Made by a program: the position numbers and the translations under genes
Notes under the pieces: model-generated
Seen by the model: the letters and a program-made list of their open reading frames with translations, nothing else
What the model was told of the DNA's origin: nothing
Databases searched by the model: none
Shown here: one piece after another, positions 1 through 64,000 of the stretch
How positions within the stretch are numbered: position 1 is the stretch's first letter
Layout: the number at the start of each line of letters is the position of its first letter
Source: a virus
Lineage: Duplodnaviria > Heunggongvirae > Uroviricota > Caudoviricetes
DNA: 64,000 nucleotides
Direction: 5' to 3' (one strand)
IMG/VR virus record: IMGVR_UViG_2925891887_000001

Positions 1-2
1 TA

Positions 3-101
3 ACTGGTGTTGCGGCTGGTACTGCCACAATCGAGGTTACTACCCAAGATGGTAGCCACAAAGCGACAGCGACCGTAGAGGTCACTGCCGCACAGGAATA
101 A
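3..101 (+). CDS. 3' end of an upstream gene; C-terminal Ig-like (Big_2-type) segment, likely head or decoration protein
   Basis: Open frame from the window edge to TAA at 99-101; the translation (GVAAGTATIEVTTQDGSHKATATVEVTAAQE) resembles the C-terminal Ig-like tail of the protein at 2761..3507. Confidence 0.4.
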   Translation, partial: TGVAAGTATIEVTTQDGSHKATATVEVTAAQE

Positions 102-145
102 CCGATATTGGGCGGCGAAAGCCGCCCAAGAGGAGAGAAAGCGTT

Positions 146-580
146 ATGAAACCAGCAAAAATTGTTTTATTAGAACCGCAATTTTCCGGTTATTCGGGAA
201 TGCTGTGTGGCGTTCAGTTCGAGAACGGGGTATCCGTAGCGGAGTTGCCTTTTATCGATCAGCAAAGGATTTGTGCCTCAATGCGAGCATCAACAGTCGA
301 GGGCAAAAATGTTTCTCCGTCTGCCGCATACAGTGATCGTGGCGAGTTGACCGCAGACCTGATTACCGAGCCAGCAGCACCTGGCATTGTGCCAATGAAA
401 CGTGGGACACCAGATGAACCGGCCAAACAGATCCAGACTTTCACACGAGAAGAGTTGGAGTCAATTGCAGACAATGAAGGCATTGCCGGTCTACGTGTGA
501 TTGGTAATCAGGTTGGTGTCAAAGCGAAAGGAATTGTCGAGATGATTGAAGGCATCCTGAAAGCACAAGGCGGTGAGTAA
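146..580 (+). CDS. hypothetical phage structural/morphogenesis protein
   Basis: 144-aa ORF, ATG preceded by AGGAGAG, position in head-tail joining region. Confidence 0.6.
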   Translation: MKPAKIVLLEPQFSGYSGMLCGVQFENGVSVAELPFIDQQRICASMRASTVEGKNVSPSAAYSDRGELTADLITEPAAPGIVPMKRGTPDEPAKQIQTFTREELESIADNEGIAGLRVIGNQVGVKAKGIVEMIEGILKAQGGE

Positions 581-1413
581 TGGCGCAGATCGACTCGTAT
601 CGTAGCGGTGAAGCTGTTTCCCTTTCATTTGCCTTCAACGTGCTGGATATCGAATCTGCTACCTACACAGTAAAGGACAGCACCGGGGCTATTCTCGTTG
701 ATGGCGAGCCGCTAGAAATTACCAGCGGTCAAATGTCGATTCCGGTTGTCGTGTCGGCTGAATATAACCAGCTCTCTGAGAAAGAGCGAGATCTGCGGTA
801 CGTCATTGTGAAGGCTGTTGCATCGGGTCTGACGCATGAAGAGCGGCAAATGTATGTTCTGCTGAATAGTTTTGAACTGTCGATACCAGAACAGTCGTTT
901 GCAACTGTCGCTGATGCTCAAATGCAGGCGATCGATATGCTGAATGGGGACACTTTGCTGTCGGATGGTGAAGGCTTAATGCGCAAGCGTCTCATTGAGG
1001 CTACCAGACGAATTAAAACTTTACCGTTCTCAATCCGCAAAATTCTACGTATCGACTTTGACCGATACGATCGCCCTCAAAATATGCTGAATGTGTATGA
1101 CATTCCGTGGGGAGCAGATGGAGCGTACCGGCATGATTTAGTCGATTGGGAAAAGATGACGCAGGAGAAGTTTGAAGAGTTCCCTGACTACTTCAAAGAA
1201 GCGTTGATGCTTGCCGTTGTCAACGAAGCGTGTGAGATCGCAAATGGCAATGATGTAGCCGCAGCACGAGAGGATGGCATTTTGTCAGAGTCCATCGGTG
1301 AAACAACCAACATGTACCGTACCGGTAAAGCTGCAAACGTGCATGTGGCTCGTAGTACCTGGCGCTTGCTGGTCAGTTACATCAACAACCGTATGATTGT
1401 TCGCCGTGCGTAA
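580..1413 (+). CDS. hypothetical phage structural/morphogenesis protein
   Basis: 277-aa ORF, start overlaps upstream stop (TAATG), same strand as the morphogenesis operon. Confidence 0.6.
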   Translation: MAQIDSYRSGEAVSLSFAFNVLDIESATYTVKDSTGAILVDGEPLEITSGQMSIPVVVSAEYNQLSEKERDLRYVIVKAVASGLTHEERQMYVLLNSFELSIPEQSFATVADAQMQAIDMLNGDTLLSDGEGLMRKRLIEATRRIKTLPFSIRKILRIDFDRYDRPQNMLNVYDIPWGADGAYRHDLVDWEKMTQEKFEEFPDYFKEALMLAVVNEACEIANGNDVAAAREDGILSESIGETTNMYRTGKAANVHVARSTWRLLVSYINNRMIVRRA

Positions 1414-1492
1414 CGCCAGTCGCATTATTTACTTTTGGTCGAAAGGGTTTTTGGCCAGTAATGAGAGCGACCGACAACAACAGGGAGAGAGC

Positions 1493-1837
1493 ATGAATAT
1501 TTCATGGCAAACAGAAATTGCGATCTACCGCTTTGGCGCAAAGAACGTTTACGGTGAGGCGCAATTACAATTCGTCAGGAAGACGAATGTCGGCGTGGTT
1601 AAGTTCGAACAGAGTAATGAGAAATCGTCAGTTCGTGCTGATAGCTCTGGTAGTCGTGGTAAGGCGAGTCTGGAGCTGTTTGATGCTGTGTTAGTAGTCC
1701 CTTTAGAAGCGGCTGTACAACTTGATGATGTACTGATCCTTGAAGGTCAAAAATTAAAGGTGTCCAGTGTTCATCGCCGCTGGGGGCTACGAGGAAGACC
1801 TGGGCATCTTGAAGTAGGGGCGAATATATGGGTCTGA
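1493..1837 (+). CDS. hypothetical protein (head-tail joining region)
   Basis: Internal ATG (MNISWQTE) preceded by AGGGAGAG; the longer 1397 start would overlap the upstream gene. Confidence 0.5.
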   Translation: MNISWQTEIAIYRFGAKNVYGEAQLQFVRKTNVGVVKFEQSNEKSSVRADSSGSRGKASLELFDAVLVVPLEAAVQLDDVLILEGQKLKVSSVHRRWGLRGRPGHLEVGANIWV

Positions 1838-2301
1838 AATACGATGCGCATCAGTTCAAACGTGCGGGGAATAGACTCAACAACAGCCAGAAAGCATTTA
1901 AGCGATATCTTATTCGGGACATGGAAAAGCTGGCGCGTTTGGTTGAGCGCCTCAGCCGTGCAATGGCCCCGCTGGAAACCGGATCTCTGGAGACAGCCAT
2001 CTTTGCCAGGGTGATTAAAGAAGGTTATTCAGGGCTGCGCATTGAGCTTTCTGTGTCTGGAGCAAAACCACGTCAGGGGCATCCGGGCGTAGAAGTCGGT
2101 GACTATGCTAAGTACATGGAGCTGGGTAAATACCGACTCGGTTATCTTTCTCGAATGAAGAACGTGACAAACCCACCAATTGCCGGTGTTAAACCCCGTG
2201 TTGGGCCACACTTTCTGGAAAGAGCGGTGGAAATTAGCGAGAAGCAGTTCTCAGAAGCGATTCTTGAGGCTGCCAGAAAAGCCGGATTTACGAGAGGTTA
2301 A
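1828..2301 (+). CDS. hypothetical head-tail connector/tail completion candidate
   Basis: 157-aa ORF tightly packed in the operon upstream of the major tail gene. Confidence 0.55.
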   Translation: MGLKYDAHQFKRAGNRLNNSQKAFKRYLIRDMEKLARLVERLSRAMAPLETGSLETAIFARVIKEGYSGLRIELSVSGAKPRQGHPGVEVGDYAKYMELGKYRLGYLSRMKNVTNPPIAGVKPRVGPHFLERAVEISEKQFSEAILEAARKAGFTRG

Positions 2302-2302
2302 T

Positions 2303-2686
2303 GTGTTTATTGAAGCGTTTGCAAGTTTGATGCAGAAGGCAAAGATTGGCACGGTCGGGACTGACATTTTCTGTCACTACTTGCCTGCCAATGTGAAATC
2401 TGGCGTCCTGCTTATTAACCCAAATACCGGTATCAGCATCGATCATGAGCTACAGGGCTTTTACCACGAATCATTCACAATAATTGTGCGTGGTTCGTCA
2501 ATTACTACGACGGTTGAGAAAGCCAATAAAATCATTGAGATGTTTCCAGTAGAGGAAACGGAATCTGGTGGTGTTTATTTTCGACTGGTACGACCGATGG
2601 CGATGCCAATCATTTATCCCAAAAATGATGGGGCATTAATAGAAGCAGGCATTCCTATTGAATTTGCTGGCTATTTATTGAATTAA
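2303..2686 (+). CDS. hypothetical tail completion/terminator candidate
   Basis: ORF immediately upstream of the major tail gene; start uncertain (GTG 2303 after GAGAGG, or ATG 2330). Confidence 0.45.
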   Translation: MFIEAFASLMQKAKIGTVGTDIFCHYLPANVKSGVLLINPNTGISIDHELQGFYHESFTIIVRGSSITTTVEKANKIIEMFPVEETESGGVYFRLVRPMAMPIIYPKNDGALIEAGIPIEFAGYLLN

Positions 2687-2760
2687 CTCAATTGGTAAGT
2701 ATATACTTACTATTAGCGCAATGAATGCGTAGAATTAACGGAAAAAGGAGTTTTCCATCA

Positions 2761-3507
2761 ATGTCTAATACCCATGTAAAAAACATCAAACTTGGTGCCT
2801 GTAAGGTGTCGTTTGGTGGTGTGGATTTGGGTTACACCAAAGGTGGTGTTCAGGTTGAAATCGCAACCGAAACGCTGAAAGTGACCGTAGACCAGCTGGG
2901 CCAGACCACGATCTCCGAGCTGATCCAGGGCCGCAACATCACCATTACTGCGCCGCTGGCTGAATCCGTGTTGAAAAACATGGTCGATCTGATGCCAGGT
3001 TCCACGCTGAGTTCTGGCGAAGATACCGTAACCATCACGTCTGCGCAGGGAGTGAACCTGATCGACGTTGCGAAAGAGTTGGTGCTGACCCCGCAGGATG
3101 CGACGGATTATGTTCTGACCATCCCTAAAGCAGCAACCGCGGGTAACTTCACCATGACCTACCAGTCTGACGACGTTCGCGTGTTCTCAGTTGAGTTTTC
3201 CGCTTACCCGGACGACGCTGGCGTGTTGGGGAAAATGAGCCTCCCAAAGCCGGTTGAGAGCGTCACGCTGACCCCGTCTTCACCGACCGTAAAAGTGGGC
3301 ACTAAAGTTCAATTGAGCGCAACCTTCACCCCGGCCGATGCAACCAATAAGACTGGCGTGTGGAGCTCTGATGCGACTGATAAAGCGACCGTAGATCAGA
3401 ACGGACTGGTAACTGGTAAAGCTGTCGGTTCAGCCAATATCACCTTCACAACTAATGACGGTGCCAAGAAGGCGACCAAAGCCGTCTCTGTAACTGCCGC
3501 AAGCTAA
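2761..3507 (+). CDS. major tail protein with C-terminal Ig-like (Big_2-type) domain
   Basis: ATG after AAAGGAG; lies directly upstream of the chaperone/tape-measure genes (lambda gpV position); Ig-like C-terminal segment. Confidence 0.7.
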   Translation: MSNTHVKNIKLGACKVSFGGVDLGYTKGGVQVEIATETLKVTVDQLGQTTISELIQGRNITITAPLAESVLKNMVDLMPGSTLSSGEDTVTITSAQGVNLIDVAKELVLTPQDATDYVLTIPKAATAGNFTMTYQSDDVRVFSVEFSAYPDDAGVLGKMSLPKPVESVTLTPSSPTVKVGTKVQLSATFTPADATNKTGVWSSDATDKATVDQNGLVTGKAVGSANITFTTNDGAKKATKAVSVTAAS

Positions 3508-3569
3508 ATTGTGATAACCCAAGAGGCCCATGGATGGGCCTCTGTATGAGTTTAAAAGGATTTTAACCA

Positions 3570-3887
3570 ATGACCAAATTACTCGATCTCGATTCCATTC
3601 TGCCTCCGAAGAAAAGCATCAAATTTGGCGGTCAGGAATATCCCATCGTTGAAATGACGGTAGGTCTGTTCGTTTCCATCAAGCAGATGGAAGGCAAAGA
3701 TCTCATGAACATGTCTCCTGTTGAGCAAGTGACAGCTTATGCAGATCTGGTTCGTAAGGTTATCCCTTCAGTACCTGACGAAGTTCTTGAAAAACTGACT
3801 GTTCCGCAACTCCAGCAGATCTTCACCTTCGCTATGGAAGTGATTGATGAAGAAAACGAAAAAGCGGCTGGCGAAGGGGCAAAGTAA
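3570..3887 (+). CDS. tail assembly chaperone (gpG-like)
   Basis: 105-aa acidic protein between major tail and tape measure genes; AAGGA RBS. Confidence 0.65.
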   Translation: MTKLLDLDSILPPKKSIKFGGQEYPIVEMTVGLFVSIKQMEGKDLMNMSPVEQVTAYADLVRKVIPSVPDEVLEKLTVPQLQQIFTFAMEVIDEENEKAAGEGAK

Positions 3888-4237
3888 TTTCCCGCGATGA
3901 ATCCGGGACAAGGACCGTCTCAATAGATCTCGGATTCTATTTCAGTCGTGTAGTTGCTCACTACGCCGTGTCGCCATTAGAGCTACTGAACGTTCCTCTC
4001 ACGATGTTCTGGATGCTCAGTCGCAATATAGACCGTCTGCGTGCGGAAGAGGATGTCCGCAACTTACAAGTCGCTCGTGCGTCCCAGGCGGATGGCGAGG
4101 CTGTGAAGGCGTTCATGGAGGGTTTGCAACTCAGGATTGGAAGACCAGTCGTAACAGATAAAGTCTACGATCCAAGCCAGGATAAGGCAGACCCTGACGC
4201 CAAAGAGCAACTGATGCAAATATTTGGCAGAGGATGA
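3570..4237 (+). CDS. tail assembly chaperone frameshift product (gpGT-like), candidate -1 programmed frameshift near 3858-3863
   Basis: The -1 frame is open from 3851 (after TGA 3848-3850) to 4237 and overlaps the last 34 nt of the gpG-like gene; the A-run GAAAAAG at 3858-3864 allows a -1 slip on AAA. Confidence 0.45.
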
Positions 4238-4244
4238 CAAGGGA

Positions 4245-7200
4245 ATGTCACAAAACGTAGAGTTTATCCTGTCGCTGGAAGACAAACAGTTTACAGCGTC
4301 AATCGATCGTGCGGGGAAACTGCTTACTCGATTTGGTGAGCAGGTAACAAAGCCTGCTCAAAAAATCCAAACCTTTGAACGCTCTTTGGGTTCGGTCGCC
4401 CGTATCATTGGCGTTCTGGAAAGCAAGCTCGATTCTACGGCAGATAAACTACAGGATGTAGCTGCCGGTTTTGAGCTTGCTTCAGATGCTACGCGTAAAA
4501 TGCGTGGCAACATCACCAGCCTCAATTCTGGTCTTAAAGCCCTGATTGAGCGCGTCGATACGACAACTTCTTCAGTAGATAAACTCACCGCGTCATTACG
4601 TAAAGTGCAATCAGAGCTAAATGATTTCTCTGATTGGGCGACCTATGCAAGCAAAAGCGCAAGCCGCTTTGGTACGGAGGTCAAAGAAGCCTCTGCGTCC
4701 GTGAGTGGCATGAATACGCGCCTTAATACCACGACGAAGCGACTCAGTAATTGGGGTGTCTCAACGAGTCAGGCTGCCGAGGGACTGAAAAAGGTTCGTG
4801 AGCAGATGGACGAAGTTATCGGACGTCAGCAACTGATTAGCAAGCCGGTACGCGTTCGTACATCTGGAGGTAGCGATGGTGGCAGCGGGCGGCGTAGCGG
4901 CTCTGGCCATAGCGGTAAAAGTAACGAAGGAGGTATGTTCTCTGGCCTTCGTGGCAACATTTTCCTGCTTGGCGAGATCGGAGATGCAGCCAGAACGGTT
5001 ACTGACATCATGTTTGGGTGGCAGAAGCCTATTGTTGAAGCTGCGGCCGAAATGGAACGTATGCGGGTGATGCTTCGAGGGTTGAATAAGGAGAAGTCCA
5101 ACCCGGGCCAGGCTGCCGCTGATGATATGAAGTACATCGTAGACATGGCTCAAAATGCGCCGTTCGCGATGCAGGCGTTAACAGACTCCTTCGTGAAGTT
5201 TCGTTCTGCTGGCTTAGATCCAACCGATGGTTCTCTGAAGGCGCTGGTGGACTCCGTTGCTCGTTTTGGTGGTGATAGTGAGCTGTTGAAACGTGCGGCT
5301 GTGGCCGTTCAGCAGATGTCCGGTAAGGGCGTTGTGTCAATGGAAGAGCTACGTCAGCAATTAGGTGAAGCCGTTCCTAACGCGATGCAGGCAATGGCAG
5401 ACGCCGCAGGCATCACTATGGGGGAACTGACTAAAGCCGTTGCCAGCGGTACGGTTGAGGCAAAACAGGCGTTGTCTCTGATGTTTGTTGGTCTGCGTGC
5501 GGAGAATGAGAACGCAGCGAAAGACATGATGCAAACCTACACAGGTGCGCTGGCGCAACTTCAGACGTCATTCACGTTATTTGCTGATCGGGTTGGTCAG
5601 GCCGGATATCTGGATTCTCTATCGAAGGGGATGAAAGAACTGGCTTCAATCATGAATAGCGCCGAAGGGATTTCGTTTGCCAATTCTTTAGGTTCGGGGT
5701 TAACAACGGCAATCGATGGGTTGCGTCAGCTTGCTCAATGGTTAGCAAAGAACCAAGAGCTGGTAATTAATCTCGGTAAGGTCGTGGCCGCGATGGTTGC
5801 GTTCAAACTGATGCGAGCAGGGATCATGGGGGTAGTTGGCGCTGGGAGCCAGATGGTTAGCACCTTTGCCACGATGGCGACCGCCATACAGACTCCATTT
5901 AACCTCGGCGCTACAGCAGTAACTCGATTCAATCGTGCGGCACGTATGGGGCTGGCTCCGATCCCCTCTCTTATTTTCGCCATCCGTGGGGCGATTACGG
6001 GGCTTAAAGGCGCTTTTGCTGGATTAACGGCGTTCATTGCAGCAAACCCTATAGGGGCAGCATTTACAGTTGCCACAGTAGCTGTTGCTGGCCTAATCAC
6101 GTACATGACCATGCTCCGCAGCGAAACTTCAAAGGTCGTTGACGAGATTAGGAAAATACCAGAGGCGATGACGGCGGCCAAACGTGCACAGATGGCGGAG
6201 TATAAAGCGCGTCTTGAGCAACAAATCACGCAAAAGGAACAAGAGTTAAAATCTGGCGAAAAGGTGGTTTATGGGCCGGGTATGGCCGGAACTACAGTAA
6301 AGATTAATCAGGATGAACGTAAGCGTATAGAAAATGAGCTAAATGACCTTCGTGAGAAACGCGATAAAACTACTGGGGCAATTGAACGCGGAGACACTGC
6401 TGTAGCCAAACGTCTTGCAAAAGATGCGGCAGAATCACAGATAGAGAAAATACGGGAAGAGAATAGAGACTTTGCGGCAACATTCGCTAAAGCTCGTCAA
6501 GAGGCTCTGGATAAGATCCAGAAAATCAATGATGACGGTTCACTTTCAGATGACGAAAAGAACAAGCTATTGGCACCGTTACGTGAAACGGTAAACAAAA
6601 GCTATCTGGAGCCTGCGCAAAAACTGGTTGATTCACTTTCTTCTCGTAAGAATGCGACCGAGAAGCAAATTGCGACTCTTAATGATCAGCTTGAAAAAGC
6701 CAAAAAGGATGGAAATACCGAGCAGATCCAGAAACTGCAAGGCAGTATTCGTGGTTATCAGGAGCATTTGGAAGCCGTTGCTCAGGAGCTGACTCAGGCA
6801 GAGTTCGAGAGAGATAACGCGGCCAAAACTGGTAAGGGCGTAATGTCAAACCAGGGGACTGTTCTTGGGTTAGGTACAACTGATAAAGCTGCTCAGAAGG
6901 CGCTGGCGCAATATATGCGAAACCAGATGGATTCTGCGACTTATCAGCGTACTTTGCCTGACGGCACTCCGATGATGGACTTCGAAGGTAAGCCGATTAT
7001 TGGGCCTAAACAACTCAAGACGCAGCTTAATTTGCAGAAAGCATCCAGCGCCAGCTCTCTGGAGAAAATGAGCGATGAAGAGCGTGCCGCAGCCATTGCT
7101 GCACTGACTAAAGCTCGTGAACAGGATGCCGCAGCCGCCGAGAAAGCAGCCCAACGATCAGCTAACGCCTCGCAGCGTGCGGCCAAGAAGGAACAGGCAG

Positions 7201-8819
7201 CGCAACAGAAACTGGCAGCCGGATACCAGAAGGCTCTGGACAAAGCCGATCAGCTTATGGGGCAAATGGGTGAAAGCTCTAAGGCTACGGTATCGTTTGA
7301 TCAGTCTCTTCGCGATACAACGAAATCGCTGACAGATTTGGCTAATGCGGTTCCTAACGAGTTCATCACTCAAGAGATGATCGACAAGGCGAAAAAACGT
7401 CTTGAAGACCTCAAAAATGCGACACCTGAATATCGCGAGATGTTTAATCGCCGCAATGTTGAGCAGATGATCTCCACCTGGGCACCGGAGGCGGATTCCA
7501 TTATTAGTGCTGGCTATACGCCGTCTCGCGAAGAGAAAGTTGCTGATTTCGAAGACACCTACAACCGCAATCTCAAAGCGTTGATAGAACTTCGTGATAA
7601 GGCGTCTGATCCTAAAGTTGTGGCGCTTTATACAAAGAAAATCAATCAACTGATTGCTGCTGGCAATACCGCGCTTATTAAAGAGACGGGGACTGCGACG
7701 CAGAAGTTGGCACTGGAATACGAAAACCTGGCAGAGCAGATCGAAAGCACCTGGACTGATTTGTTTAGTGGCTTAACTGATGTCCTGACTGATTTCGTTA
7801 TTAACGGGAAGATGAGCTTCTCCAGCCTATCTCAGTCCATTTTGAAAGATATCACCAATATGGTCGTGAAGTCGCAAATCACGCTGCCTCTAATGAACAT
7901 GTTGGGGATGGGAACCACCGCAGCTGGTAGTTCACAGAGTGGCAATTTGCTCACTGGAGTTGCTTCTGCCGTTGCCAATCAAGGTGTACGAATGGGCAAC
8001 ACTGTTAATGGCGACAAGTCGGTAGGAGAAGCCACGAAGGAGACGTCCAGTTCGGTAACTGGATTGGGGCAAACAACACAGCAGACCACCAGCGCAATTG
8101 GCACAGCAACAAATGCGATTGGTAGCTGGGTATCGGGGCTATTTGATAGCACCGAAGCCAAAGATGCTGAGACAAAAGCAGTGAAGGACTCCATCTTCTC
8201 GATGCAGAACCTCAGCTCTGTTACCGGCGCTCTGTCTGCCGCGTTTGCAATGCTTGGAGCTAATGCTTCCGGCTCTGGTAATAAGTGGTTGAATTTCGGC
8301 GCGACAGTTGCATCTGGTTTGGTTTCAGTATGGGCTGGTGGTGGATTCGATGGATTGATGTCCGGTTCTTCTGGCTCAACTTCCGGGTTCAACAATCTGA
8401 CCAGTTCTGCTGCCGATGGCACGAATGGTATTCCTGCAATTCCGAAGTTTGCAAATGGTGGCATATTCGGAAAAGACGGCGTGATCCCGCTCCGGGCATA
8501 CCAGAAAGGCGGTATCGCCAACTCACCTCAATTGGCGTTGTTTGGGGAAGGCGATATGAATGAGGCGTATGTTCCATTGCCTGATGGCCGAACAATCCCT
8601 GTAACGCTCAGTACCGATGGTATGAGTGGAGGCGGAAATGTTCTTTCTCCTGTATCAATTGAGATCAACGTCCATAGTGACGGTAGCACGACAGAATCCG
8701 GCGATACAGAAAGCATATGGAACAATGCCGCTCAACGGATGAAAGCAATCGCGCTTGAGACTATCGCTCAAGAGAAACGCCCTGGCGGATCACTCAACCC
8801 AAACACTCAACGTAACTAA
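4245..8819 (+). CDS. tail tape measure protein
   Basis: about 1.5k-aa ORF directly after the chaperone pair; long helical segments, Gly/hydrophobic central region; start uncertain (TTG 4224 or ATG 4245). Confidence 0.85.
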   Translation: MSQNVEFILSLEDKQFTASIDRAGKLLTRFGEQVTKPAQKIQTFERSLGSVARIIGVLESKLDSTADKLQDVAAGFELASDATRKMRGNITSLNSGLKALIERVDTTTSSVDKLTASLRKVQSELNDFSDWATYASKSASRFGTEVKEASASVSGMNTRLNTTTKRLSNWGVSTSQAAEGLKKVREQMDEVIGRQQLISKPVRVRTSGGSDGGSGRRSGSGHSGKSNEGGMFSGLRGNIFLLGEIGDAARTVTDIMFGWQKPIVEAAAEMERMRVMLRGLNKEKSNPGQAAADDMKYIVDMAQNAPFAMQALTDSFVKFRSAGLDPTDGSLKALVDSVARFGGDSELLKRAAVAVQQMSGKGVVSMEELRQQLGEAVPNAMQAMADAAGITMGELTKAVASGTVEAKQALSLMFVGLRAENENAAKDMMQTYTGALAQLQTSFTLFADRVGQAGYLDSLSKGMKELASIMNSAEGISFANSLGSGLTTAIDGLRQLAQWLAKNQELVINLGKVVAAMVAFKLMRAGIMGVVGAGSQMVSTFATMATAIQTPFNLGATAVTRFNRAARMGLAPIPSLIFAIRGAITGLKGAFAGLTAFIAANPIGAAFTVATVAVAGLITYMTMLRSETSKVVDEIRKIPEAMTAAKRAQMAEYKARLEQQITQKEQELKSGEKVVYGPGMAGTTVKINQDERKRIENELNDLREKRDKTTGAIERGDTAVAKRLAKDAAESQIEKIREENRDFAATFAKARQEALDKIQKINDDGSLSDDEKNKLLAPLRETVNKSYLEPAQKLVDSLSSRKNATEKQIATLNDQLEKAKKDGNTEQIQKLQGSIRGYQEHLEAVAQELTQAEFERDNAAKTGKGVMSNQGTVLGLGTTDKAAQKALAQYMRNQMDSATYQRTLPDGTPMMDFEGKPIIGPKQLKTQLNLQKASSASSLEKMSDEERAAAIAALTKAREQDAAAAEKAAQRSANASQRAAKKEQAAQQKLAAGYQKALDKADQLMGQMGESSKATVSFDQSLRDTTKSLTDLANAVPNEFITQEMIDKAKKRLEDLKNATPEYREMFNRRNVEQMISTWAPEADSIISAGYTPSREEKVADFEDTYNRNLKALIELRDKASDPKVVALYTKKINQLIAAGNTALIKETGTATQKLALEYENLAEQIESTWTDLFSGLTDVLTDFVINGKMSFSSLSQSILKDITNMVVKSQITLPLMNMLGMGTTAAGSSQSGNLLTGVASAVANQGVRMGNTVNGDKSVGEATKETSSSVTGLGQTTQQTTSAIGTATNAIGSWVSGLFDSTEAKDAETKAVKDSIFSMQNLSSVTGALSAAFAMLGANASGSGNKWLNFGATVASGLVSVWAGGGFDGLMSGSSGSTSGFNNLTSSAADGTNGIPAIPKFANGGIFGKDGVIPLRAYQKGGIANSPQLALFGEGDMNEAYVPLPDGRTIPVTLSTDGMSGGGNVLSPVSIEINVHSDGSTTESGDTESIWNNAAQRMKAIALETIAQEKRPGGSLNPNTQRN

Positions 8820-8993
8820 CTATCGACTGCCCCGACCGGGGCAGTCTCACAAGGATGTGAGATGGAAAGACAAACGTTTAATTGGTATCCAGATTACGAA
8901 TCTGAAAAGAGCGTAAAACCGAATGTAACGGTACTTAATTTTGGTGATGACTACGAGCAGCGACAGGCTCAAGGTCTTAATCGTATTAAAGAA

Positions 8994-9002
8994 GAATGGT
9001 CG
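8994..9002. repeat. IS1 target site duplication, left copy (GAATGGTCG)
   Basis: Identical 9-mer directly flanks both IS1 ends. Confidence 0.9.
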
Positions 9003-9017
9003 GGTAATGACTCCAAC

Positions 9018-9521
9018 TTATTGATAGTGTTTTATGTTCAGATAATGCCCGATGACTTTGTCATGCAGCTCCACCGATTTTGAGAACGACAGCGACTTCC
9101 GTCCCAGCCGTGCCAGGTGCTGCCTCAGATTCAGGTTATGCCGCTCAATTCGCTGCGTATATCGCTTGCTGATTACGTGCAGCTTTCCCTTCAGGCGGGA
9201 TTCATACAGCGGCCAGCCATCCGTCATCCATATCACCACGTCAAAGGGTGACAGCAGGCTCATAAGACGCCCCAGCGTCGCCATAGTGCGTTCACCGAAT
9301 ACGTGCGCAACAACCGTCTTCCGGAGCCTGTCATACGCGTAAAACAGCCAGCGCTGGCGCGATTTAGCCCCGACATAGCCCCACTGTTCGTCCATTTCCG
9401 CGCAGACGATGACGTCACTGCCCGGCTGTATGCGCGAGGTTACCGACTGCGGCCTGAGTTTTTTAAGTGACGTAAAATCGTGTTGAGGCCAACGCCCATA
9501 ATGCGGGCAGTTGCCCGGCAT
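9018..9521 (-). CDS. insB: IS1 InsB (transposase part, expressed as InsAB by frameshift)
   Basis: 167-aa ORF recognised as IS1 InsB, overlapping insA in another frame. Confidence 0.9.
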
Positions 9522-9715
9522 CCAACGCCATTCATGGCCATATCAATGATTTTCTGGTGCGTACCGGGTTGAGAAGCGGTGTAAGTGAACTGCAGTTGCC
9601 ATGTTTTACGGCAGTGAGAGCAGAGATAGCGCTGATGTCCGGCGGTGCTTTTGCCGTTACGCACCACCCCGTCAGTAGCTGAACAGGAGGGACAGCTGAT
9701 AGAAACAGAAGCCAC
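9440..9715 (-). CDS. insA: IS1 InsA
   Basis: 91-aa ORF ([40 protein letters not shown]...) recognised as IS1 InsA. Confidence 0.9.
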
Positions 9716-9770
9716 TGGAGCACCTCAAAAACACCATCATACACTAAATCAGTAAGTTGGCAGCATCACC

Positions 9771-9779
9771 GAATGGTCG
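9771..9779. repeat. IS1 target site duplication, right copy (GAATGGTCG)
   Basis: Identical 9-mer directly flanks both IS1 ends. Confidence 0.9.
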
Positions 9780-10056
9780 TTAACCTTTACCAGATCATAC
9801 AACGAAATTAATGCAATCGATGACTTCCTGACTGAGCGAGCAGGCGTTGAGTCGTTCTATTGGGTTAATCCAAGAGGAAAACGGATTGTAGTTGTATGTG
9901 ACAGTCATACGGTCAAGCGATATCAGGGGTACTGTGTCTTAACTGCTACATTCAGACAAGTATTTGAGGCTTAAGTATCTGGATAAGTAAGTACTAATTT
10001 ACTATCATTGTGGCGCTGACAGGATGTTAGCGCCTACTTATTTCAAGGATGAAACA

Positions 10057-10755
10057 ATGGGAATTAAAGCTGATATTCAGAGCTTATCTCCCTCTGCACT
10101 CATTGAGTTGTTCGTACTGGATATGTCGAACACAACTTCAGGGGGGAAGTTATTCTTCCACGCCGGAACAAACGAACTGATGCAACCTGTCGTCTGGCAA
10201 GGAGTGACATACGAGCCGTGGCCAATCAAAGCATCAGGCTTTGACAAAACTGGCCAGGGAACGTTGCCACGTCCAAAAATTCAGGTATCGAACTTTGCCG
10301 GAACCGTCTCTGCGGAAGTTCAGGCGAACGACGATCTTGTTGGCTGCCGCATTATTCGCAAGATGACGCTGGCTCGCTTCCTCGATGCCGTTAATTTTAA
10401 AGACGGCAACCCAACAGCAGATCCAAACCAACATTTCCCGGATGAAATGTGGTTTATCGAACAGAAAACGCTCGAAACTCATCAGGTTGTCGAGTTTGAG
10501 TTGTCCAGTGTGTTCGATTTGATGGGGGTGCAACTGCCGTATCGTCAGATCATTAAAAACACCTGCCCGTGGAAATACCGAGGGCCAGAATGCGGCTATA
10601 CCGGTCCATATTTCGACAAAAATAACCAGCAGACGTCTATGTCTGGTGCTGATTACTGCACAAAACGTTATGACGCCTGTAATGCGCGTCGGAATTATTT
10701 TGCCAACGGAGTGATCCATTTTGGCGGGTTTATTGGAGCTACGCGATATGGGTAA
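10057..10755 (+). CDS. minor tail protein L-like
   Basis: C-terminal cysteine cluster (CPWKYRGPECGY, CTKRYDAC) as in lambda gpL; gene order M-L-K-I-J. Confidence 0.75.
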   Translation: MGIKADIQSLSPSALIELFVLDMSNTTSGGKLFFHAGTNELMQPVVWQGVTYEPWPIKASGFDKTGQGTLPRPKIQVSNFAGTVSAEVQANDDLVGCRIIRKMTLARFLDAVNFKDGNPTADPNQHFPDEMWFIEQKTLETHQVVEFELSSVFDLMGVQLPYRQIIKNTCPWKYRGPECGYTGPYFDKNNQQTSMSGADYCTKRYDACNARRNYFANGVIHFGGFIGATRYG

Positions 10756-52552: not shown

Positions 52553-52567
52553 GGAAGGAATGTACCG

Positions 52568-58857: not shown

Positions 58858-58904
58858 ATGCAAACTGACTGCGGCACGTTCCGCAGTCATATTTCATAGT
58901 CGTC

Positions 58905-59437
58905 ACCGCTGACAGCATACACAATCAACTACCGCTGATAGCATATCGAGAGTCTATCTCACCGCTCACAGCATACTTTACTCGATTCTTTACCGCTGAC
59001 AGCATACTTAAGAAATTGCATGAATAATGTGTCCCGGTATGGGTATAACCAGAACAAAATTACCGCTGGCAGCATACGAATGTCTGACATATACCATTAA
59101 TTACCGCTGATAGCATATCCAAACAAAAATTCCTCAATAACACACCGCTGACAGCATACGTTCTATCAGGGAGTAGCAGGCAATAAATGCCTTTCACTAC
59201 AAGCAACCAGCGCAATAGCAATAGAATGTTAGTGAGCGCAAACCTATATGGAATGCACTCTTCGAGGTTAGTAACCACTGGGGAGGTATGACAGAGCATT
59301 GAGTGGTGATAGATGATTTACCGCTCACAGCATACGTTCATCTCACTATACCGCTGGTAGCATATCTTTAACCGTTCACAGCAAACTTTTCAGAAAAATA
59401 GCCGCTGATAGCATACATTTCACCGCTGACAGCATAT
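58905..59437 (+). repeat. iteron array downstream of rep: about 12 direct copies of a 16-bp unit (consensus ACCGCTGACAGCATAC), incA-like
   Basis: Copies read at 58905, 58931, 58961, 58992, 59062, 59103, 59144, 59320, 59350, 59371 (degenerate), 59401, 59422, all in the same orientation. Confidence 0.85.
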
Positions 59438-60531
59438 CAAAGCAGTTTGAGACTATTGGAAAGGATCTCAATCATCTTGATATTTTCAGGCGTCAAATTC
59501 TGCGAAAGTTCGGTTATCTTGTTGATAATGTTCTGTTTGGCATCAATTTCCCCAGCTTTCTCATCTGGTTTTTTGGGTTCGATGTCTTCAGGTTTTGGCG
59601 GTGCGACTTTGAGTTTTGGATTGCGGCTGTGAATCTGGATATAGATCGACCGCCCACGCTTAATCTCGCTGTATTCGAGATAGCCCAAATCTTGGAGAGC
59701 TTTTAAGCCGTTACGTATAGTCTGATTCTGCGAGCTGACATTCCTGCTACTCAAATTGAGTCGCGCACGCAATCGAGCAAGCGATACCGGCGCAGGCTTG
59801 GTTGGAAGACTTTCGATGAAGGTGTACAGAGCCTGTGCTGTTTCTTTGCGTGGTAGCTTATTGATAACCTTTAACTGCAAAAGAACCTTATGGTCAAAGC
59901 GATATAGTTCGGCCAGCTTCGGTTCTGCATAGAACACCACCGTATCTTTCTGCTCGTTGTAGTCCACGCTATTGATGAGGTGCACCATCAGAAGCGAGAT
60001 CTTGTTAGAGCCGTCGACGTTCTTTTCTTCATACGTTCTCTGGAAAGACAGAGTTGTACGCATGATCTTCAAAAGACTGTTTGTAAGCCGGTCGCGGAGT
60101 GTTTTGCGGATCTGTGACGATGGATAGCCACAAAACTTAGCAAATTTCGTGATGCTTAACTCGACACGACCGTTAGGTTCGCCGTATTCTGCCAGCGAAC
60201 GCACAACGCCCACCCACGTTTTGAAATCATGATCCATGTCGAGACGAGGACCGGTTATCTTGATATCGGAATAGCCTTCAGAACGGGCTACTTCGAGCTG
60301 GACAAGCTCCTTTGAAGCATCGATCTCATTTGGCTTGTTACGTTTACTGTATTTTGTTCCCTTAAGCGTGGGGACGAACAACCCCAGTCGCATCAACGCA
60401 ATTGGTTGGACTGTATTGTTGCTATTAGGGACAAGTTCCCCTGTGTACAATTCAAGGGAACCTTCTTCAAAGTTGTCGATGTTATCTTCTACTTCTTTGT
60501 TATTTTTACCTTTTTTATTTTTTGTGGACAT
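59437..60531 (-). CDS. replication initiator (iteron-binding Rep protein) candidate
   Basis: 364-aa ORF flanked on both sides by the same 16-bp iterons; basic N-terminus; start MSTKNKKG at the DnaA-box-like TGTGGACA pair; assignment from replicon architecture, not from a protein motif. Confidence 0.6.
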   Translation of the reverse strand: MSTKNKKGKNNKEVEDNIDNFEEGSLELYTGELVPNSNNTVQPIALMRLGLFVPTLKGTKYSKRNKPNEIDASKELVQLEVARSEGYSDIKITGPRLDMDHDFKTWVGVVRSLAEYGEPNGRVELSITKFAKFCGYPSSQIRKTLRDRLTNSLLKIMRTTLSFQRTYEEKNVDGSNKISLLMVHLINSVDYNEQKDTVVFYAEPKLAELYRFDHKVLLQLKVINKLPRKETAQALYTFIESLPTKPAPVSLARLRARLNLSSRNVSSQNQTIRNGLKALQDLGYLEYSEIKRGRSIYIQIHSRNPKLKVAPPKPEDIEPKKPDEKAGEIDAKQNIINKITELSQNLTPENIKMIEILSNSLKLL

Positions 60532-60551
60532 GTGGACACCTTTGTCATTCA

Positions 60552-60653
60552 ACCGCTGACAGCATACTTGATTTGCCGCTGACAGAATACCAAAAACAGT
60601 TGGCAGCATACGGTGAACCGCTGACAGACTATCAATTACCGCTGACAGCATAC
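60552..60653 (+). repeat. iteron array upstream of rep (origin-proximal, about 5 copies at roughly 21-bp spacing)
   Basis: Copies at 60552, 60575, 60596 (degenerate), 60617, 60638 of the same 16-bp unit. Confidence 0.8.
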
Positions 60654-60693
60654 ATGAACATGACTTCAGACCAGTCGTGGCGCGGCTTACAGC

Positions 60694-60766
60694 GATCGGG
60701 GATCTTATTTGATCTATATAAGGATCTATCTATGGATCTCTTTATTAGGATCTATCCTGTGGATAT
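60694..60766. promoter_or_regulatory. origin-associated AT-rich region with six GATC sites and a DnaA-box-like 9-mer (TGTGGATAT)
   Basis: GATC at 60694, 60701, 60711, 60723, 60735, 60749 within GGATCT-type repeats; TGTGGATAT at 60758-60766. Confidence 0.6.
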
Positions 60767-60852
60767 GTGAATAATTAAAACAGGCATTTACTACCTTCGG
60801 CGCACCTGGTGGGTTATCGTTGCCTCGGCTAACAATCACAGAAAAATGACAT

Positions 60853-61497
60853 ATGGATCTAAAACGCACGCGCTGGGTTCGTCGTCTTGAAGACGGCTCC
60901 TACACTATCGAATCAAATTCCAACCTGAATAAGCAGAAGTTGCTTTGTGACATCTGCGGTATAGCGGCGAAGTGCCCGATCTACGAAACCAGAATTAAAC
61001 TTGATAAGGCTGGTGTGAATTTTCATTTAAACAGTTGCATCAGGTACGTTCCATTACTCGCATTTCGTAAACCGATCATCGGATTGGATGCTCCCTACTT
61101 CAACACACTCCGTTCAGGTGTGACGTGGCGAGATCGTTTATCACCAGACAAGCTGATTTGCCTCGTATCCGCAGACACAGGGAAAATCATCCGTTTTGGG
61201 AAAGTAGACAAGGTTTACTCAGGCCCAGTAGACGAAATGTTGCGGAAACACAGCCGGTTTAATCATCTCTGTATGGGTGGTGAGAAAATCGAGAAGGTAG
61301 AAGAAGTGATCCGCAAATCCTACGGACACTTTCTGACCAAAGATAGCCTGCTCACCGCAATCTACATCAGACATGTAAAACGTGAGTTCGACCTCGAATA
61401 CCACAGCGAAGAAGAGCTTAACCTTGTTGACCCACGTCCAAAAGCTGGCGTCATAAGCATAAACGCAGCGCGTAAAAAGCCCACTGACGCGCTGTAA
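60853..61497 (+). CDS. hypothetical protein
   Basis: 214-aa ORF downstream of the origin region. Confidence 0.5.
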   Translation: MDLKRTRWVRRLEDGSYTIESNSNLNKQKLLCDICGIAAKCPIYETRIKLDKAGVNFHLNSCIRYVPLLAFRKPIIGLDAPYFNTLRSGVTWRDRLSPDKLICLVSADTGKIIRFGKVDKVYSGPVDEMLRKHSRFNHLCMGGEKIEKVEEVIRKSYGHFLTKDSLLTAIYIRHVKREFDLEYHSEEELNLVDPRPKAGVISINAARKKPTDAL

Positions 61498-61751
61498 CCC
61501 TCCAGATCGTATATTGGCGTAGATAGAATCTACGCCCCCTCAAAATAGCTCTCATAGCGTTCTACAGTGATCCTGTCTTATTTTTAGTCATACAGACAAG
61601 CAAAGTTGCGCCACAACAAATAGGTATATACTTACTTATAAATTTTGTATATTAAGGCGCTCGTTTCATTCCTAACATACCGTTATGCATAGTTGTTTAC
61701 CTTCTCATTGCTCTTAGAATTTGTATCAAAATAATCACAAAGGAAAAACAC

Positions 61752-62837
61752 ATGACTTTGCCATACGGCGTCATTTCTGACTGCCACTACCACAAATGGG
61801 ATGCGTTCTCCACGACGAACGCAGAGGGGCTTAACTCCAGACTTGAAATACAGTTGGAAGCAACGAAAGAAGCAGCCATCGCCATGAAGAAGGCCGGTTG
61901 TAAGTACATGTTGGTTGCCGGTGATACATTTCACGTCCGAGGAACTGTGTCCCCTTCTGTTTTGCATTACGTAACTGAAACGTACAAGTGGATTATCAAC
62001 GAGCTTGATCTGACAGTAGTAATGCTGGCCGGTAATCACGATCTTGAAACCAACGATTCAGTATATAGCGCCAACGCAGCAGCATCGCTGAGTTCTATCG
62101 GCGTGGTAATCGTATGTGGCAAACGCCCACACTCAATAAAAATTGGTGATGTGACTGTCCACCTGATTAGCTGGCGTAACAATCATGCGGAGCTTATCAG
62201 CGATCTGAAAGCATTACGTAAGAGCGTAGAAGGTGACAATCATGACGTTGTTATCCATACATCCATTAACAAAGCCATTCCAACAATGCCTGACGTCGGT
62301 ATCGATGCGCAGGAGTTAAAGGATATCGGCTTTCGTCTCGTGCTTAGTGGGCATTACCACAACCACAAAGAGGTCATTCCTGGAGTTATCAGTGTCGGTG
62401 CACTGACTCATCAAAATTGGGGAGATGTTGGATCTCTGGCTGGCTACATGATCGTAAACCCGGACGGCAGTTTCAGTCACTACGAAACCAGTGCGCCTAA
62501 ATTCATTAACCTGGAAGATGATGTTGCTGATGACCAAATTCGCGGCAACTACGTGCGTTTCCGCGCCGTAATTGAGAACGATGAAGAAGGCATTAAGTAC
62601 CAGAACATCCTCAAAACAATGGGTGCAAAAGGTGTCGTGTGCAACTTCATCCGTAAGTCATCAATGATGGAAGGGACAGCCAGCACAACTGAAACCAGCA
62701 AAATCGATAGCCTGGGAGAGTCGGTATCTGCTTATTGCAAGATTGTCCACGATACTGACGGCGGATTTGATCTGAGCAAATTGGATATTTTGTGTCAGGA
62801 AATCCTCACCGAAGCGGAGAGTTCGGAGGCTGTGTGA
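61752..62837 (+). CDS. sbcD: SbcD/Mre11-like metallophosphoesterase nuclease
   Basis: Phosphoesterase motifs (SDCHYH, AGDTFH, LAGNHD, SGHYHNH); conserved AAAGGAAAAACAC leader. Confidence 0.75.
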   Translation: MTLPYGVISDCHYHKWDAFSTTNAEGLNSRLEIQLEATKEAAIAMKKAGCKYMLVAGDTFHVRGTVSPSVLHYVTETYKWIINELDLTVVMLAGNHDLETNDSVYSANAAASLSSIGVVIVCGKRPHSIKIGDVTVHLISWRNNHAELISDLKALRKSVEGDNHDVVIHTSINKAIPTMPDVGIDAQELKDIGFRLVLSGHYHNHKEVIPGVISVGALTHQNWGDVGSLAGYMIVNPDGSFSHYETSAPKFINLEDDVADDQIRGNYVRFRAVIENDEEGIKYQNILKTMGAKGVVCNFIRKSSMMEGTASTTETSKIDSLGESVSAYCKIVHDTDGGFDLSKLDILCQEILTEAESSEAV

Positions 62838-63070
62838 AGCAAAGTCGTTATGGGAGCTTTCGAGACTTTGCCATCACGATGAAAAGACTTGAACGAGGCC
62901 AGACGGTGATGTTTCACAAGCCCTACCCGCCACAAGGAAATCCCGTAGCGTTTTATCTTGGAAGGTTAACAAGAAAAGGCGTATTGAGGCGCAGATCCTT
63001 CCCGGCGCATACGGAGTTCAGATTGAAAGAAGGTCAAAAGCTAACACACGGTATCAAAGGTGTTATATGA
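62792..63070 (+). CDS. hypothetical small protein (uncertain)
   Basis: 92-aa ORF overlapping the end of the sbcD-like gene; may not be expressed. Confidence 0.3.
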   Translation: MSGNPHRSGEFGGCVKQSRYGSFRDFAITMKRLERGQTVMFHKPYPPQGNPVAFYLGRLTRKGVLRRRSFPAHTEFRLKEGQKLTHGIKGVI

Positions 63071-64000
63071 AGTTTTTAAAGCTCCAGGTTGAGAATTTTA
63101 TGGCTATCGCCAGCGCGGAGGTCGAGTTAGATCAGCGTGGTTTAGTGCTCATTCAGGGTGTTAATAGTGATGATAGTTCCGCATCAAGTAATGGCTCTGG
63201 AAAGTCAACGCTAATGAATAGCCTGATGTGGTGTCTTTATGGCGAAACAGCTCATGGTGTGAAGGGTGACGATGTGTTGTCTACCGACCATGAAAAGAAC
63301 TGTCGTGTTGCAGTAACCATCGAGGATGAAGGCAAAAGATATGCGATCATTCGTCACCGTAAACACAAAGAGTTCAAAAATCGGCTTATCGTTCGTGGTG
63401 AAGACGGCGATATGACGAAAGGCAAAGATGCGCTGACGCAAGAGTTCGTCGAGCGTCTGATCGGTGCATCTAAAGAGGTTTTCATGGCTTCCATCTATGC
63501 AAGCCAAGAAGCTATGCCAGATTTACCTGGAATGTCCGACAAAAACCTCAAAACCATCGTAGAAGAAGCCGCTGGCGTTGACAGACTGACACGCGCCTAC
63601 GCTATTGCTCGTGAGCGAGCTAATGCAGCTGCCGCACGTATGGATGTGGTTAAAACCAAATTGGAGTCGACAATCTCGACCATTGAGGCAACACAGTCAG
63701 AAATTGAGTCAGCGAAAGCCTCCTCTGAATCATGGGAGCAAGAGCGTTCTAAACGTTATGACGATGCCCTGGCTGGGCTGGCCAGTGCCGAAGTTGAGTT
63801 AACGGAAGTTGAACTTGAGATCCGCACTCTTCCCGAACAGATCCGTGATACCGAGAAGGCAATCGAAAGTGAGCGCAAAAAGTTAGCCTCAAAAGAAGAA
63901 CATGACGCCAAGTTGCTCAAAGTTCGTGGTGCGATAACTGATATTCGGGCAAGCATCAAAGCTACAGAAAATAGTCAGGCTGATGCAATGAACCGCGCGC
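63067..64000 (+). CDS. sbcC: SbcC/Rad50-like ATPase, 5' part (truncated by the window end)
   Basis: N-terminal Rad50-type Walker A (LIQGVNSDDSSASSNGSGKSTLMNSL) followed by coiled-coil sequence; ORF runs to the window edge. Confidence 0.7.
   Translation, partial: MKFLKLQVENFMAIASAEVELDQRGLVLIQGVNSDDSSASSNGSGKSTLMNSLMWCLYGETAHGVKGDDVLSTDHEKNCRVAVTIEDEGKRYAIIRHRKHKEFKNRLIVRGEDGDMTKGKDALTQEFVERLIGASKEVFMASIYASQEAMPDLPGMSDKNLKTIVEEAAGVDRLTRAYAIARERANAAAARMDVVKTKLESTISTIEATQSEIESAKASSESWEQERSKRYDDALAGLASAEVELTEVELEIRTLPEQIRDTEKAIESERKKLASKEEHDAKLLKVRGAITDIRASIKATENSQADAMNRA

Follow-up and report, generated by a model that had tools for sequence, protein, structure and literature searches.

The 64,000-nucleotide stretch of DNA listed as IMG/VR virus record IMGVR_UViG_2925891887_000001, which in its full length is called here the window, represents with high confidence a 64-kb part of a temperate SSU5-supergroup siphovirus kept as a low-copy circular plasmid. 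Such an architecture is already known and ordinary for the SSU5 family, the sequence being that of an annotated RefSeq plasmid, and it can be regarded as textbook for phage-plasmids. The interest of the window lies in a natural pair of plasmids that differ by an IS1 insertion in a tail gene and in a replicative polymerase gene, dnaE, that is split in two. A split yet conserved DnaE, broken at a site used by two families of endonucleases, is the one lead that we consider worth following.

The window is the reverse complement of the Escherichia coli plasmid p22AR0322A (NZ_CP195468.1) and spans the origin of that record, with 2 mismatches in 64,000 bases when the plasmid was rebuilt from three stretches of NZ_CP195468.1 for comparison with the whole window. 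In a search of complete E. coli genomes, bases 1-25000 matched p22AR0322A in a single piece at 100%. The two single-base differences, at 11650 (C/T) and 59998 (G/C), indicate that the window derives from a near-identical record or version and not exactly from NZ_CP195468.1. The record corresponds to a circular molecule of 109,442 bp from a human isolate from New Zealand, so the window covers 58% of the element. Genes for the major capsid, portal and terminase, nrdAB, thymidylate synthase and dfrA51 are found in the remainder, and across the whole plasmid packaging, head, tail and lysis functions are all represented, with a gpM-type tail gene interrupted by IS1 in p22AR0322A. A first-pass annotation, made from the letters of the window, had described virion genes there; those for tail and lysis are present, whereas head, portal and terminase genes lie elsewhere on the plasmid.

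Comparison of the window, in three thirds, with phage and plasmid collections by megablast, a search that the first-pass annotation had proposed, returned one family throughout, Cyrano/SSU5. The Escherichia phage-plasmids Cyrano and CMS-2020a were 96-98% identical to the window thirds, and more than 1,300 enterobacterial plasmids of ~105-115 kb, mostly non-mobilizable, matched as well. Cyrano (pLF82, OV696614) keeps the gene order of the window at 96-97% nucleotide identity over 72-86%, and the Salmonella phage SSU5 (NC_018843) is fully syntenic at ~80% identity over 48-72%, through the tail fibre, cor, lysis, parA, helicase, primase, ligase, tRNA, cobT/cobS-like and dnaE genes and then from the single-strand-binding protein, exonuclease, recA and repA to sbcCD. 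These values support in the window the gene repertoire of the SSU5 supergroup of phage-plasmids, which has already been described (PMC7969092), and together with the match to p22AR0322A they bear out the SSU5-like phage-plasmid layout suggested at first sight. Cyrano shares with the window the RecA intein, the RepA replicon, ParA and the tail and lysis genes, but has an intact DnaE, an intact gpM-type gene, three tRNAs instead of four (tRNA-Tyr is missing), and KacT and HicAB toxin-antitoxin genes, and lacks the cor cluster, the KAP NTPase and the Sel1-repeat gene. SSU5 differs in a 358-residue recombinase without intein, an uninterrupted polymerase gene, a single tRNA and the absence of the tyrosine recombinase/repressor pair at the position where the window has it. 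For Cyrano, a plasmid state plus virion production has been demonstrated experimentally, with 5.5 copies per cell, DNase-protected genomes 32-fold over background and induction by ciprofloxacin (PMC9928086).

The first-pass annotation spoke of lambda-like virion genes fused to a plasmid-type backbone. The lambda-type tail is confirmed, and the fusion is not, as the whole order is colinear with SSU5; neither a recent fusion nor any novelty of the architecture is supported. That the window is a chimeric assembly, or the product of a recent fusion between a lambdoid prophage and an unrelated plasmid, could be argued from a mosaic patch in the tail fibre that is 95.5% identical to lambdoid phages, from a tRNA region 83-85% identical to P1, P7 and D6, and from a single low-GC gene at 26570-28276. 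Apart from that gene, however, composition and strand skew are uniform along the window, and the same order of modules is common to SSU5, Cyrano, more than 90 further complete plasmids and an independently assembled foreign sibling, plasmid pCR-0543_1 from Houston, which is 100% identical over bases 1-25000 save one IS1-sized gap. Taken together, a chimeric or recently fused origin is extremely improbable.

An integrated prophage using the tyrosine recombinase at 40825-41928 as its integrase would account for this gene and for the divergent repressor-like gene next to it. Nevertheless, the record is a closed circular plasmid, and a survey with the first 1,510 bases of the element's dnaE as query found 245 places in 243 of 5,426 complete E. 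coli genomes (~4.5% of them carry the element family), every one of the 245 on a plasmid and none chromosomal. Moreover, SSU5 is entirely without this recombinase, and in a plasmid prophage such an enzyme is more likely a resolver of dimers, like Cre, which resolves plasmid dimers in P1. An element that exists in integrated form thus has a negligible likelihood, and the two outcomes that the first-pass annotation had named as fatal to its proposal, a chimeric assembly and an exclusively integrated state, have both failed to appear.

For the plasmid state the window has a replicon homologous to that of P1, with a partition locus some distance away:
58901 to 59437, plus strand: eleven iterons behind repA, placed like incA in P1 (repeat listing).
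59437 to 60531, minus strand: repA, a 364-residue iteron-binding initiator read from the ATG at 60531 (Pfam Rep3_N; homology to P1 RepA).
60548 to 60774, minus strand: origin region with iterons, a GATC cluster and DnaA-like boxes, in the order of P1 oriR.
25491 to 26518, plus strand: partition locus, with ParA and a 119-residue partner.
25491 to 26159, plus strand: ParA, small Walker-type (Pfam MipZ, AAA_31, CbiA, ParA).
26165 to 26518, plus strand: partner of ParA, 119 residues.

The RepA of the window is 46% identical to P1 RepA (E = 3e-86), while comparison of its sequence with solved structures gave no match at E <= 1. Fifteen direct copies of the iteron ACCGCTGACAGCATAC are listed, 11 downstream and 4 upstream of repA, and a fifth, degenerate upstream copy is visible in the front block (60548-60653). 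Six GATC sites are packed within 59 bp (60694-60752) in comparison with 0.4 per 100 bp window-wide. Following the direction of repA we find the DnaA-like boxes, the GATC sites, the front iterons, the ATG at 60531, repA and the rear iterons, which is the order given in the record of the P1 replicon (oriR-repA-incA), with its DnaA box, five Dam sites, five incC iterons, repA and nine incA iterons. In both elements the front iterons overlap the repA promoter region, although the iterons differ in sequence and in number (4-5 plus 11 in the window, 5 plus 9 in P1). The first-pass annotation had called the element P1-like in concept, and the shared replicon goes beyond a concept. Other parts depart from P1, which has adjacent parA-parB-parS and a myovirus virion, whereas the window keeps its par locus, with a small Walker-type ParA, 33 kb from the replicon and encodes a siphovirus. 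The Prokaryotic Genome Annotation Pipeline (PGAP) gives a RepA of 404 residues (59437-60651) whose start lies upstream of its own front iterons, and the 364-residue protein from 60531 suits the P1 arrangement better.

Some observations weigh against the plasmid reading or against the closeness of the parallels on which it draws. Each of the two tandem DnaA-like boxes (60758-60774) carries one mismatch, and near-matches to the DnaA box are not enriched window-wide (12 found, 15 expected), so that the evidence from the tandem boxes lies in their position alone. The partner of ParA belongs to a PHROGs family of unknown function and has a weak ribbon-helix-helix-like match, and nothing convincing was found when centromere repeats were sought near the par locus. 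In addition, the copy number, induction and virion production presumed for p22AR0322A are extrapolated from Cyrano and SSU5, and an SSU5-like plasmid of Klebsiella is specifically described as not being an active phage (PMC8969562); membership of the SSU5 family is therefore no guarantee of phage activity.

In the life cycle that we propose, a P1-type RepA would initiate replication at an origin made of DnaA boxes, a cluster of Dam sites and iterons, the iteron block behind repA would limit the copy number as incA does in P1, and ParA with its small partner would segregate the plasmid copies. A helix-turn-helix repressor may silence the lytic genes in the plasmid state. The steps after induction are read from gene content: the element would then use its own replisome (a DnaB-like helicase, primase, DnaE, a gp32-type single-strand-binding protein, a 5'-3' exonuclease and ligase) and a recombination set formed by RecA, SbcCD and, beyond the window, a RuvC-like gene; in the lytic stage a lambda-type tail would be built and the cell lysed by holin, endolysin and spanins. 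Domain and annotation searches recovered all the parts that the first-pass annotation had listed, namely tail, lysis, par, iteron replicon, helicase, primase, ligase, split DnaE, single-strand-binding protein, flap endonuclease, RecA, SbcCD and tRNAs.

The dnaE gene of this replication set occupies the following positions:
46491 to 48854, plus strand: N-terminal piece of DnaE, 787 residues, with PHP, palm/NTPase and fingers (Pfam; alignment to Cyrano DnaE).
48903 to 49637, plus strand: predicted free-standing HNH homing endonuclease, 244 residues, with NUMOD3 and HNH_3 (Pfam).
49634 to 50803, plus strand: C-terminal piece of DnaE, 389 residues, with HHH_6 (Pfam; alignment to Cyrano DnaE).

The split polymerase noticed in the first pass is thus real, as two DnaE open reading frames (ORFs) around an HNH_3/NUMOD3 ORF. 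The DnaE of Cyrano is a single protein of 1168 residues, with which the two pieces of the window align end to end, adding only 8 residues. Translation of the C-terminal piece would begin at a separate ATG, which overlaps the stop codon of the endonuclease (ATGA) and is preceded by a Shine-Dalgarno-like GAGGTG. The C-terminal piece is called an incomplete pseudogene by PGAP, and the annotation of another plasmid lists it as a uracil-DNA glycosylase. Two classical ways of rejoining such pieces were considered and discarded. A split intein with protein trans-splicing is excluded by the 8 residues that the pieces add to the intact length, and an intron is rejected, Rfam showing none at gathering score window-wide and no match of any kind at E <= 1 over 48600-49900, where only 48 nt are non-coding.

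In relation to the alpha subunit of Thermus DNA polymerase III (residues 788/789), the break falls where a 48-residue insert of the finger domain ends; this insert corresponds to residues 740-787 of Cyrano DnaE and to 48700-48854 and 49634-49700 of the window. It lies ~25 residues upstream of the FNKSHS motif. The site of the cyanobacterial split-DnaE intein is just before the FNKSHS of the finger domain, and so ~25 residues beyond the break of the window; there a split intein joins the halves, whereas the window dnaE has no intein halves.

The HNH cassette occurs in 22 of the 243 complete E. coli genomes that carry the element, always on a plasmid. Carriers from Korea, Canada, the USA and China, one each, repeat the split arrangement of the window, which is thereby seen in plasmids of five countries. 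A more sensitive plasmid search revealed the cassette, at 90% identity, in a Cronobacter plasmid. The endonuclease has no close relative in the phage collection, where its best match reaches 27% identity. In plasmids of Klebsiella and Enterobacter, both flanks match the window and a different insert, annotated as a NUMOD4 HNH endonuclease, lies between them; this pattern of matching flanks with a mismatching insert was found in 8 of 40 evenly spaced rows of the plasmid search, 6 of which list a NUMOD4 endonuclease, and split dnaE genes may accordingly be common in both genera. In the K. pneumoniae plasmid pF77_2 (NZ_CP026138.1, 892-5144) the N-terminal piece again has exactly 787 codons and the C-terminal piece likewise begins with MKIAKVISEQEGL (MKI...), with an intervening NUMOD4-type endonuclease that shows 28% identity to that of the window over 57 residues only.

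Sliding comparisons of identity left a clear footprint of the movement of the cassette. Carriers agree with one another at 96-100% identity over ~270-360 nt before the endonuclease and ~90 nt after it, but their identity to the uninterrupted allele is no more than 47-75% there. Beyond these tracts the carriers diverge, one of them matching Cyrano at 100% for the remainder of the C-terminal piece. Such shared flanks in differing backgrounds indicate that the cassette entered different dnaE alleles and that its flanks were co-converted along with it. By its domains, its presence/absence polymorphism and this co-conversion the ORF is a free-standing homing endonuclease, for which homing activity is predicted.

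The question is then whether a polymerase gene cut in this manner still works. It could be dead, with the host DNA polymerase III taking over lytic replication, as would befit the pseudogene call on the C-terminal piece, the frameshift that PGAP reports for the N-terminal piece of one carrier, and the lack of an intein or intron to rejoin the pieces. On the contrary, both reading frames are open in the window as well as in five other carriers from three genera (E. coli, Cronobacter and Klebsiella), and the C-terminal piece comes with an ATG and a Shine-Dalgarno-like sequence of its own. Selection points the same way: among E. coli carriers the ratio of nonsynonymous to synonymous substitution rates (dN/dS) over the whole of both pieces is 0.01-0.05, which is weaker evidence for selection in the split state because much of this divergence may be older than the invasions. 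More informative is the tract carried along by the cassette. Between E. coli and Cronobacter its synonymous divergence (dS 0.39) resembles that of the endonuclease (0.32), and its dN/dS is 0.037, that of the endonuclease being 0.20; over its first 30 codons the C-terminal piece has 4 synonymous and 0 nonsynonymous changes. In view of this, we consider a dead dnaE unlikely.

The two DnaE pieces most likely form a working polymerase without covalent joining, by analogy with the nrdA gene of Aeromonas phage Aeh1 (PMC3045599). Against this reading it must be said that the test on the tract covers 121 codons with 25 synonymous and 4 nonsynonymous changes, that the carrier with the frameshifted N-terminal piece, as called by PGAP, is pSTEC388_1, and that conservation of sequence is what supports the function of the split enzyme.

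In Aeh1, nrdA is split by the free-standing endonuclease mobE (PMC3045599, PMC2988022). As in the window, an endonuclease ORF sits inside an essential replication-related gene, its insertion brings a stop and a new start codon, and the halves are conserved. The cases differ in that the target here is a C-family (DnaE) polymerase of a phage-plasmid, for which assembly of the pieces is predicted, and in that two unrelated HNH families are found at the identical site in different host genera. We give about an even chance to the wider proposal that the dnaE of the SSU5 supergroup is a homing hot spot for at least two unrelated HNH families, which would leave behind a two-polypeptide, non-covalent and intein-free C-family polymerase that spreads across the plasmid prophages of enterobacterial genera. 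In the searchable literature we found neither an account of such a polymerase nor a paper linking phage-plasmids to a dnaE homing endonuclease or a recA intein. A replicative polymerase that is split and apparently still under selection bears on how far essential enzymes tolerate fragmentation by selfish DNA.

The second selfish element interrupts recA:
53781 to 56120, plus strand: RecA precursor, 779 residues (Pfam RecA, Intein_splicing, LAGLIDADG_3).

An intein of 422 residues (residues 65-486, 53973-55238) separates exteins of 64 and 293 residues, whose sum of 357 is close to the 358 of the intein-less recombinase of SSU5. The intein divides the Walker A motif of RecA between its K and T, and the junctions read GPPSAGK / C...SHN / T, with Cys1, a terminal His-Asn and Thr at +1. 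It is a class 1 intein with a LAGLIDADG endonuclease domain and the canonical splicing residues, predicted to splice, and it would have to leave the P-loop for RecA to function. The recA of Cyrano likewise has 2,340 nt, and the intein DNA is present in 119 complete E. coli genomes, always on a plasmid, which amounts to about half of the 243 carriers of the element. PGAP names the RecA precursor only 'LAGLIDADG family homing endonuclease'.

The third selfish element lies in the tail region, which together with the lysis genes reads as follows:
146 to 8819, plus strand: head-tail joining and tail shaft genes, with two small ORFs in the position of the tail chaperones (Pfam; Cyrano and PGAP annotations).
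2303 to 2686, plus strand: tail terminator (Pfam Phage_tail_terminator_6).
2761 to 3507, plus strand: tail tube protein with Ig domain (Pfam Big_2).
4245 to 8819, plus strand: tape measure protein with lambda-type C-terminal domain (Pfam TMP_3, Tape_meas_lam_C).
8862 to 9002, plus strand: 5' fragment of the gpM-type minor tail protein gene, 47 codons (PGAP pseudogene).
9003 to 9770, minus strand: IS1, 768 bp, with insA/insB (ORF translations; PGAP IS1A-family transposase).
9771 to 9974, plus strand: 3' fragment of the gpM-type gene (PGAP pseudogene).
10057 to 16871, plus strand: lambda-type tail tip genes (Pfam, annotations).
10057 to 10755, plus strand: gpL homologue (Pfam Phage_tail_L, 7e-97).
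10748 to 11545, plus strand: gpK homologue (Pfam NLPC_P60 plus Prok-JAB).
11533 to 12126, plus strand: gpI-like ORF, without Pfam match and named solely from the PGAP and Cyrano annotations.
12144 to 16871, plus strand: gpJ homologue (Pfam FNIII-A_GpJ, Phage-tail_3, Phage_Tail_Tip).
16965 to 21263, plus strand: tail fibre, 1432 residues, with a mosaic distal part (Gp34_trimer, Peptidase_S74).
22509 to 23939, plus strand: lysis cassette with putative holin, endolysin and Rz/Rz1-type spanins, the Rz-like one assigned to phrog_1026 (PHROGs; SSU5 and Cyrano annotations agree).
22846 to 23538, plus strand: endolysin (PHROGs phrog_873, 9e-89).

The IS1 that the first-pass annotation had seen in a tail gene is delimited by 23-nt terminal inverted repeats and by a 9-bp target duplication, GAATGGTCG, at 8994-9002 and 9771-9779, and the gene could be specified as a gpM homologue broken after codon 47. 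The intact allele in pCR-0543_1, where the IS1 site is empty, has 336 nt and encodes 111 residues (Pfam Phage_min_tail 5e-35). Since p22AR0322A was the sole full-length match in a single piece among complete E. coli genomes and the sibling keeps the gene intact, the insertion is recent and private. In lambda, gpM is essential, being required for tail tip assembly, and the IS1-bearing copy is for this reason probably tail-defective. By this analogy p22AR0322A would probably be unable to assemble tails and hence be locked in as a plasmid. Such a plasmid and its sibling with an intact gene offer a natural pair to address whether losing a single tail gene turns a phage-plasmid into a plain plasmid.

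A broader version of this idea would hold that p22AR0322A, and perhaps many of its relatives, are now plasmids only, decaying phage-plasmids without infectious particles that are retained through replicon, partition and accessory genes. The interrupted gpM-type gene, a split dnaE whose C-terminal piece PGAP flags as a pseudogene, the chromosomal metG and apbC acquired beside an IS1 remnant, and the report of a Klebsiella SSU5-like plasmid not acting as an active phage (PMC8969562) would all fit. But the insertion is recent and private, the otherwise identical sibling (100% over bases 1-25000) keeps the gene intact, the remaining tail, lysis and replication ORFs examined are all intact, including the tail fibre flagged by PGAP, both DnaE pieces show strong purifying selection, and Cyrano, 96-97% identical, produces virions. 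A general decay is therefore possible though doubtful, and a temperate phage kept as a plasmid remains our preferred description of the family member sampled here.

With IS1, the RecA intein and the HNH cassette, the heavy traffic of selfish elements supposed in the first-pass annotation is well founded: these three classes occur at very different frequencies in the population, IS1 in this plasmid only, the intein in 119 of 243 carriers and the HNH ORF of dnaE in 22 of 243, and the HNH cassette bears a signature of homing. The presence of a RecA intein was likewise correct, with Intein_splicing and LAGLIDADG domains inside Walker A.

In the tail fibre, the N-terminal 698 residues are near-identical to the Cyrano fibre and bases 17489-19234 are 95.5% identical to the lambdoid phage phi458. 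The longer stretch 17489-19492 shows 85-95.5% identity to lambdoid side tail fibre genes (phi458, 2H10, ev099 and others), from which the mosaic nature of the fibre follows. The pseudogene call of PGAP on the fibre is rejected, as the ORF of 1432 residues is continuous and starts 94 nt past the gpJ-type gene. The holin is putative, on the basis of its position and the SSU5 and Cyrano annotations only.

The replication, recombination and remaining genes with assigned functions are the following:
29242 to 36496, plus strand: replication gene block (Pfam; PGAP).
29242 to 30582, plus strand: DnaB-like helicase (Pfam DnaB_C).
30730 to 31845, plus strand: primase (Pfam DNAG_N/Toprim_2).
31837 to 33090, minus strand: Sel1-repeat gene, after the primase (Pfam Sel1).
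35174 to 36496, plus strand: ATP-dependent ligase (Pfam DNA_ligase_A_M).
38086 to 38739, plus strand: four tRNAs, Asn(GTT), Tyr(GTA), Thr(TGT) and Ser(TGA) (ARAGORN; Rfam confirms three).
40825 to 41928, plus strand: tyrosine recombinase (Pfam Phage_integrase).
41923 to 42309, minus strand: divergent helix-turn-helix gene, a putative repressor (repressor in Cyrano; helix-turn-helix regulator in PGAP).
42871 to 46310, plus strand: CobT-like VWA protein and CobS-like AAA ATPase (Pfam CobT, CobT_C, AAA_5).
Within 50930 to 53512, plus strand: UvsY-like mediator (Cyrano annotation only).
51479 to 52507, plus strand: single-strand-binding protein of the T4 gp32 type (Pfam gp32, 2e-67).
52568 to 53512, plus strand: 5'-3' exonuclease of the flap-endonuclease family (Pfam 5_3_exonuc_N, 5_3_exonuc).
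61752 to 62837, plus strand: SbcD-like nuclease, complete (Pfam Metallophos).
From 63067, plus strand: first part of an SbcC-like ATPase, cut by the end of the window (PGAP, Cyrano annotations).

The single-strand-binding protein is thus of the T4 gp32 type and not of the bacterial type, and a glutaredoxin was also confirmed by the domain search of the window. Six stretches (24164-25341, 28449-29198, 33318-34639, 38932-40194, 50906-51361 and 60853-61497) gave no Pfam, NCBIfam or PADLOC match, and PHROGs assigned two of them, 24164-25341 and 38932-40194, to families of unknown function only.

The window departs from Cyrano and SSU5 in a few fixed slots, one of them that of the Sel1-repeat gene listed above; others are the following:
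21324 to 22427, plus strand: three accessory membrane genes between the tail fibre and the holin (PHROGs 557, 425, 1119).
22194 to 22427, plus strand: Cor superinfection-exclusion lipoprotein (PHROGs).
26570 to 28276, plus strand: KAP-family P-loop NTPase, a candidate defence gene of 34% GC (Pfam KAP_NTPase; PADLOC PDC-S49, 2e-21).

The trio containing cor is present in SSU5 and absent from Cyrano, and the slot of the KAP NTPase, after the par locus, holds different genes in Cyrano and SSU5. Two genes of unknown function occupy the position of the KacT toxin pair of Cyrano. The 420-residue protein encoded at 38932-40194 on the minus strand (PHROGs family 18168) is in the slot of CYRAN_43, an accessory gene of Cyrano with a lysogen expression 723-fold over local background (PMC9928086).

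Across the SSU5 family, annotation pipelines mislabel several of the genes discussed above, as seen for the name of RecA, the C-terminal piece of DnaE and the tail fibre as pseudogenes, and the start of repA. The tRNA region (38086-38762) shows 83-85% identity to the tRNA-Asn/Thr region of P1, P7 and D6, and 90% to phage vB_EcoM-Ro157c2YLVW, a similarity at the nucleotide level that suggests an exchange of modules between unrelated families of phage-plasmids. Outside the window, full-length metG (methionine-tRNA ligase) and apbC genes lie beside an IS1 remnant at 83105-86477 of NZ_CP195468.1, and the presence of these two normally chromosomal genes looks like an IS1-mediated capture.

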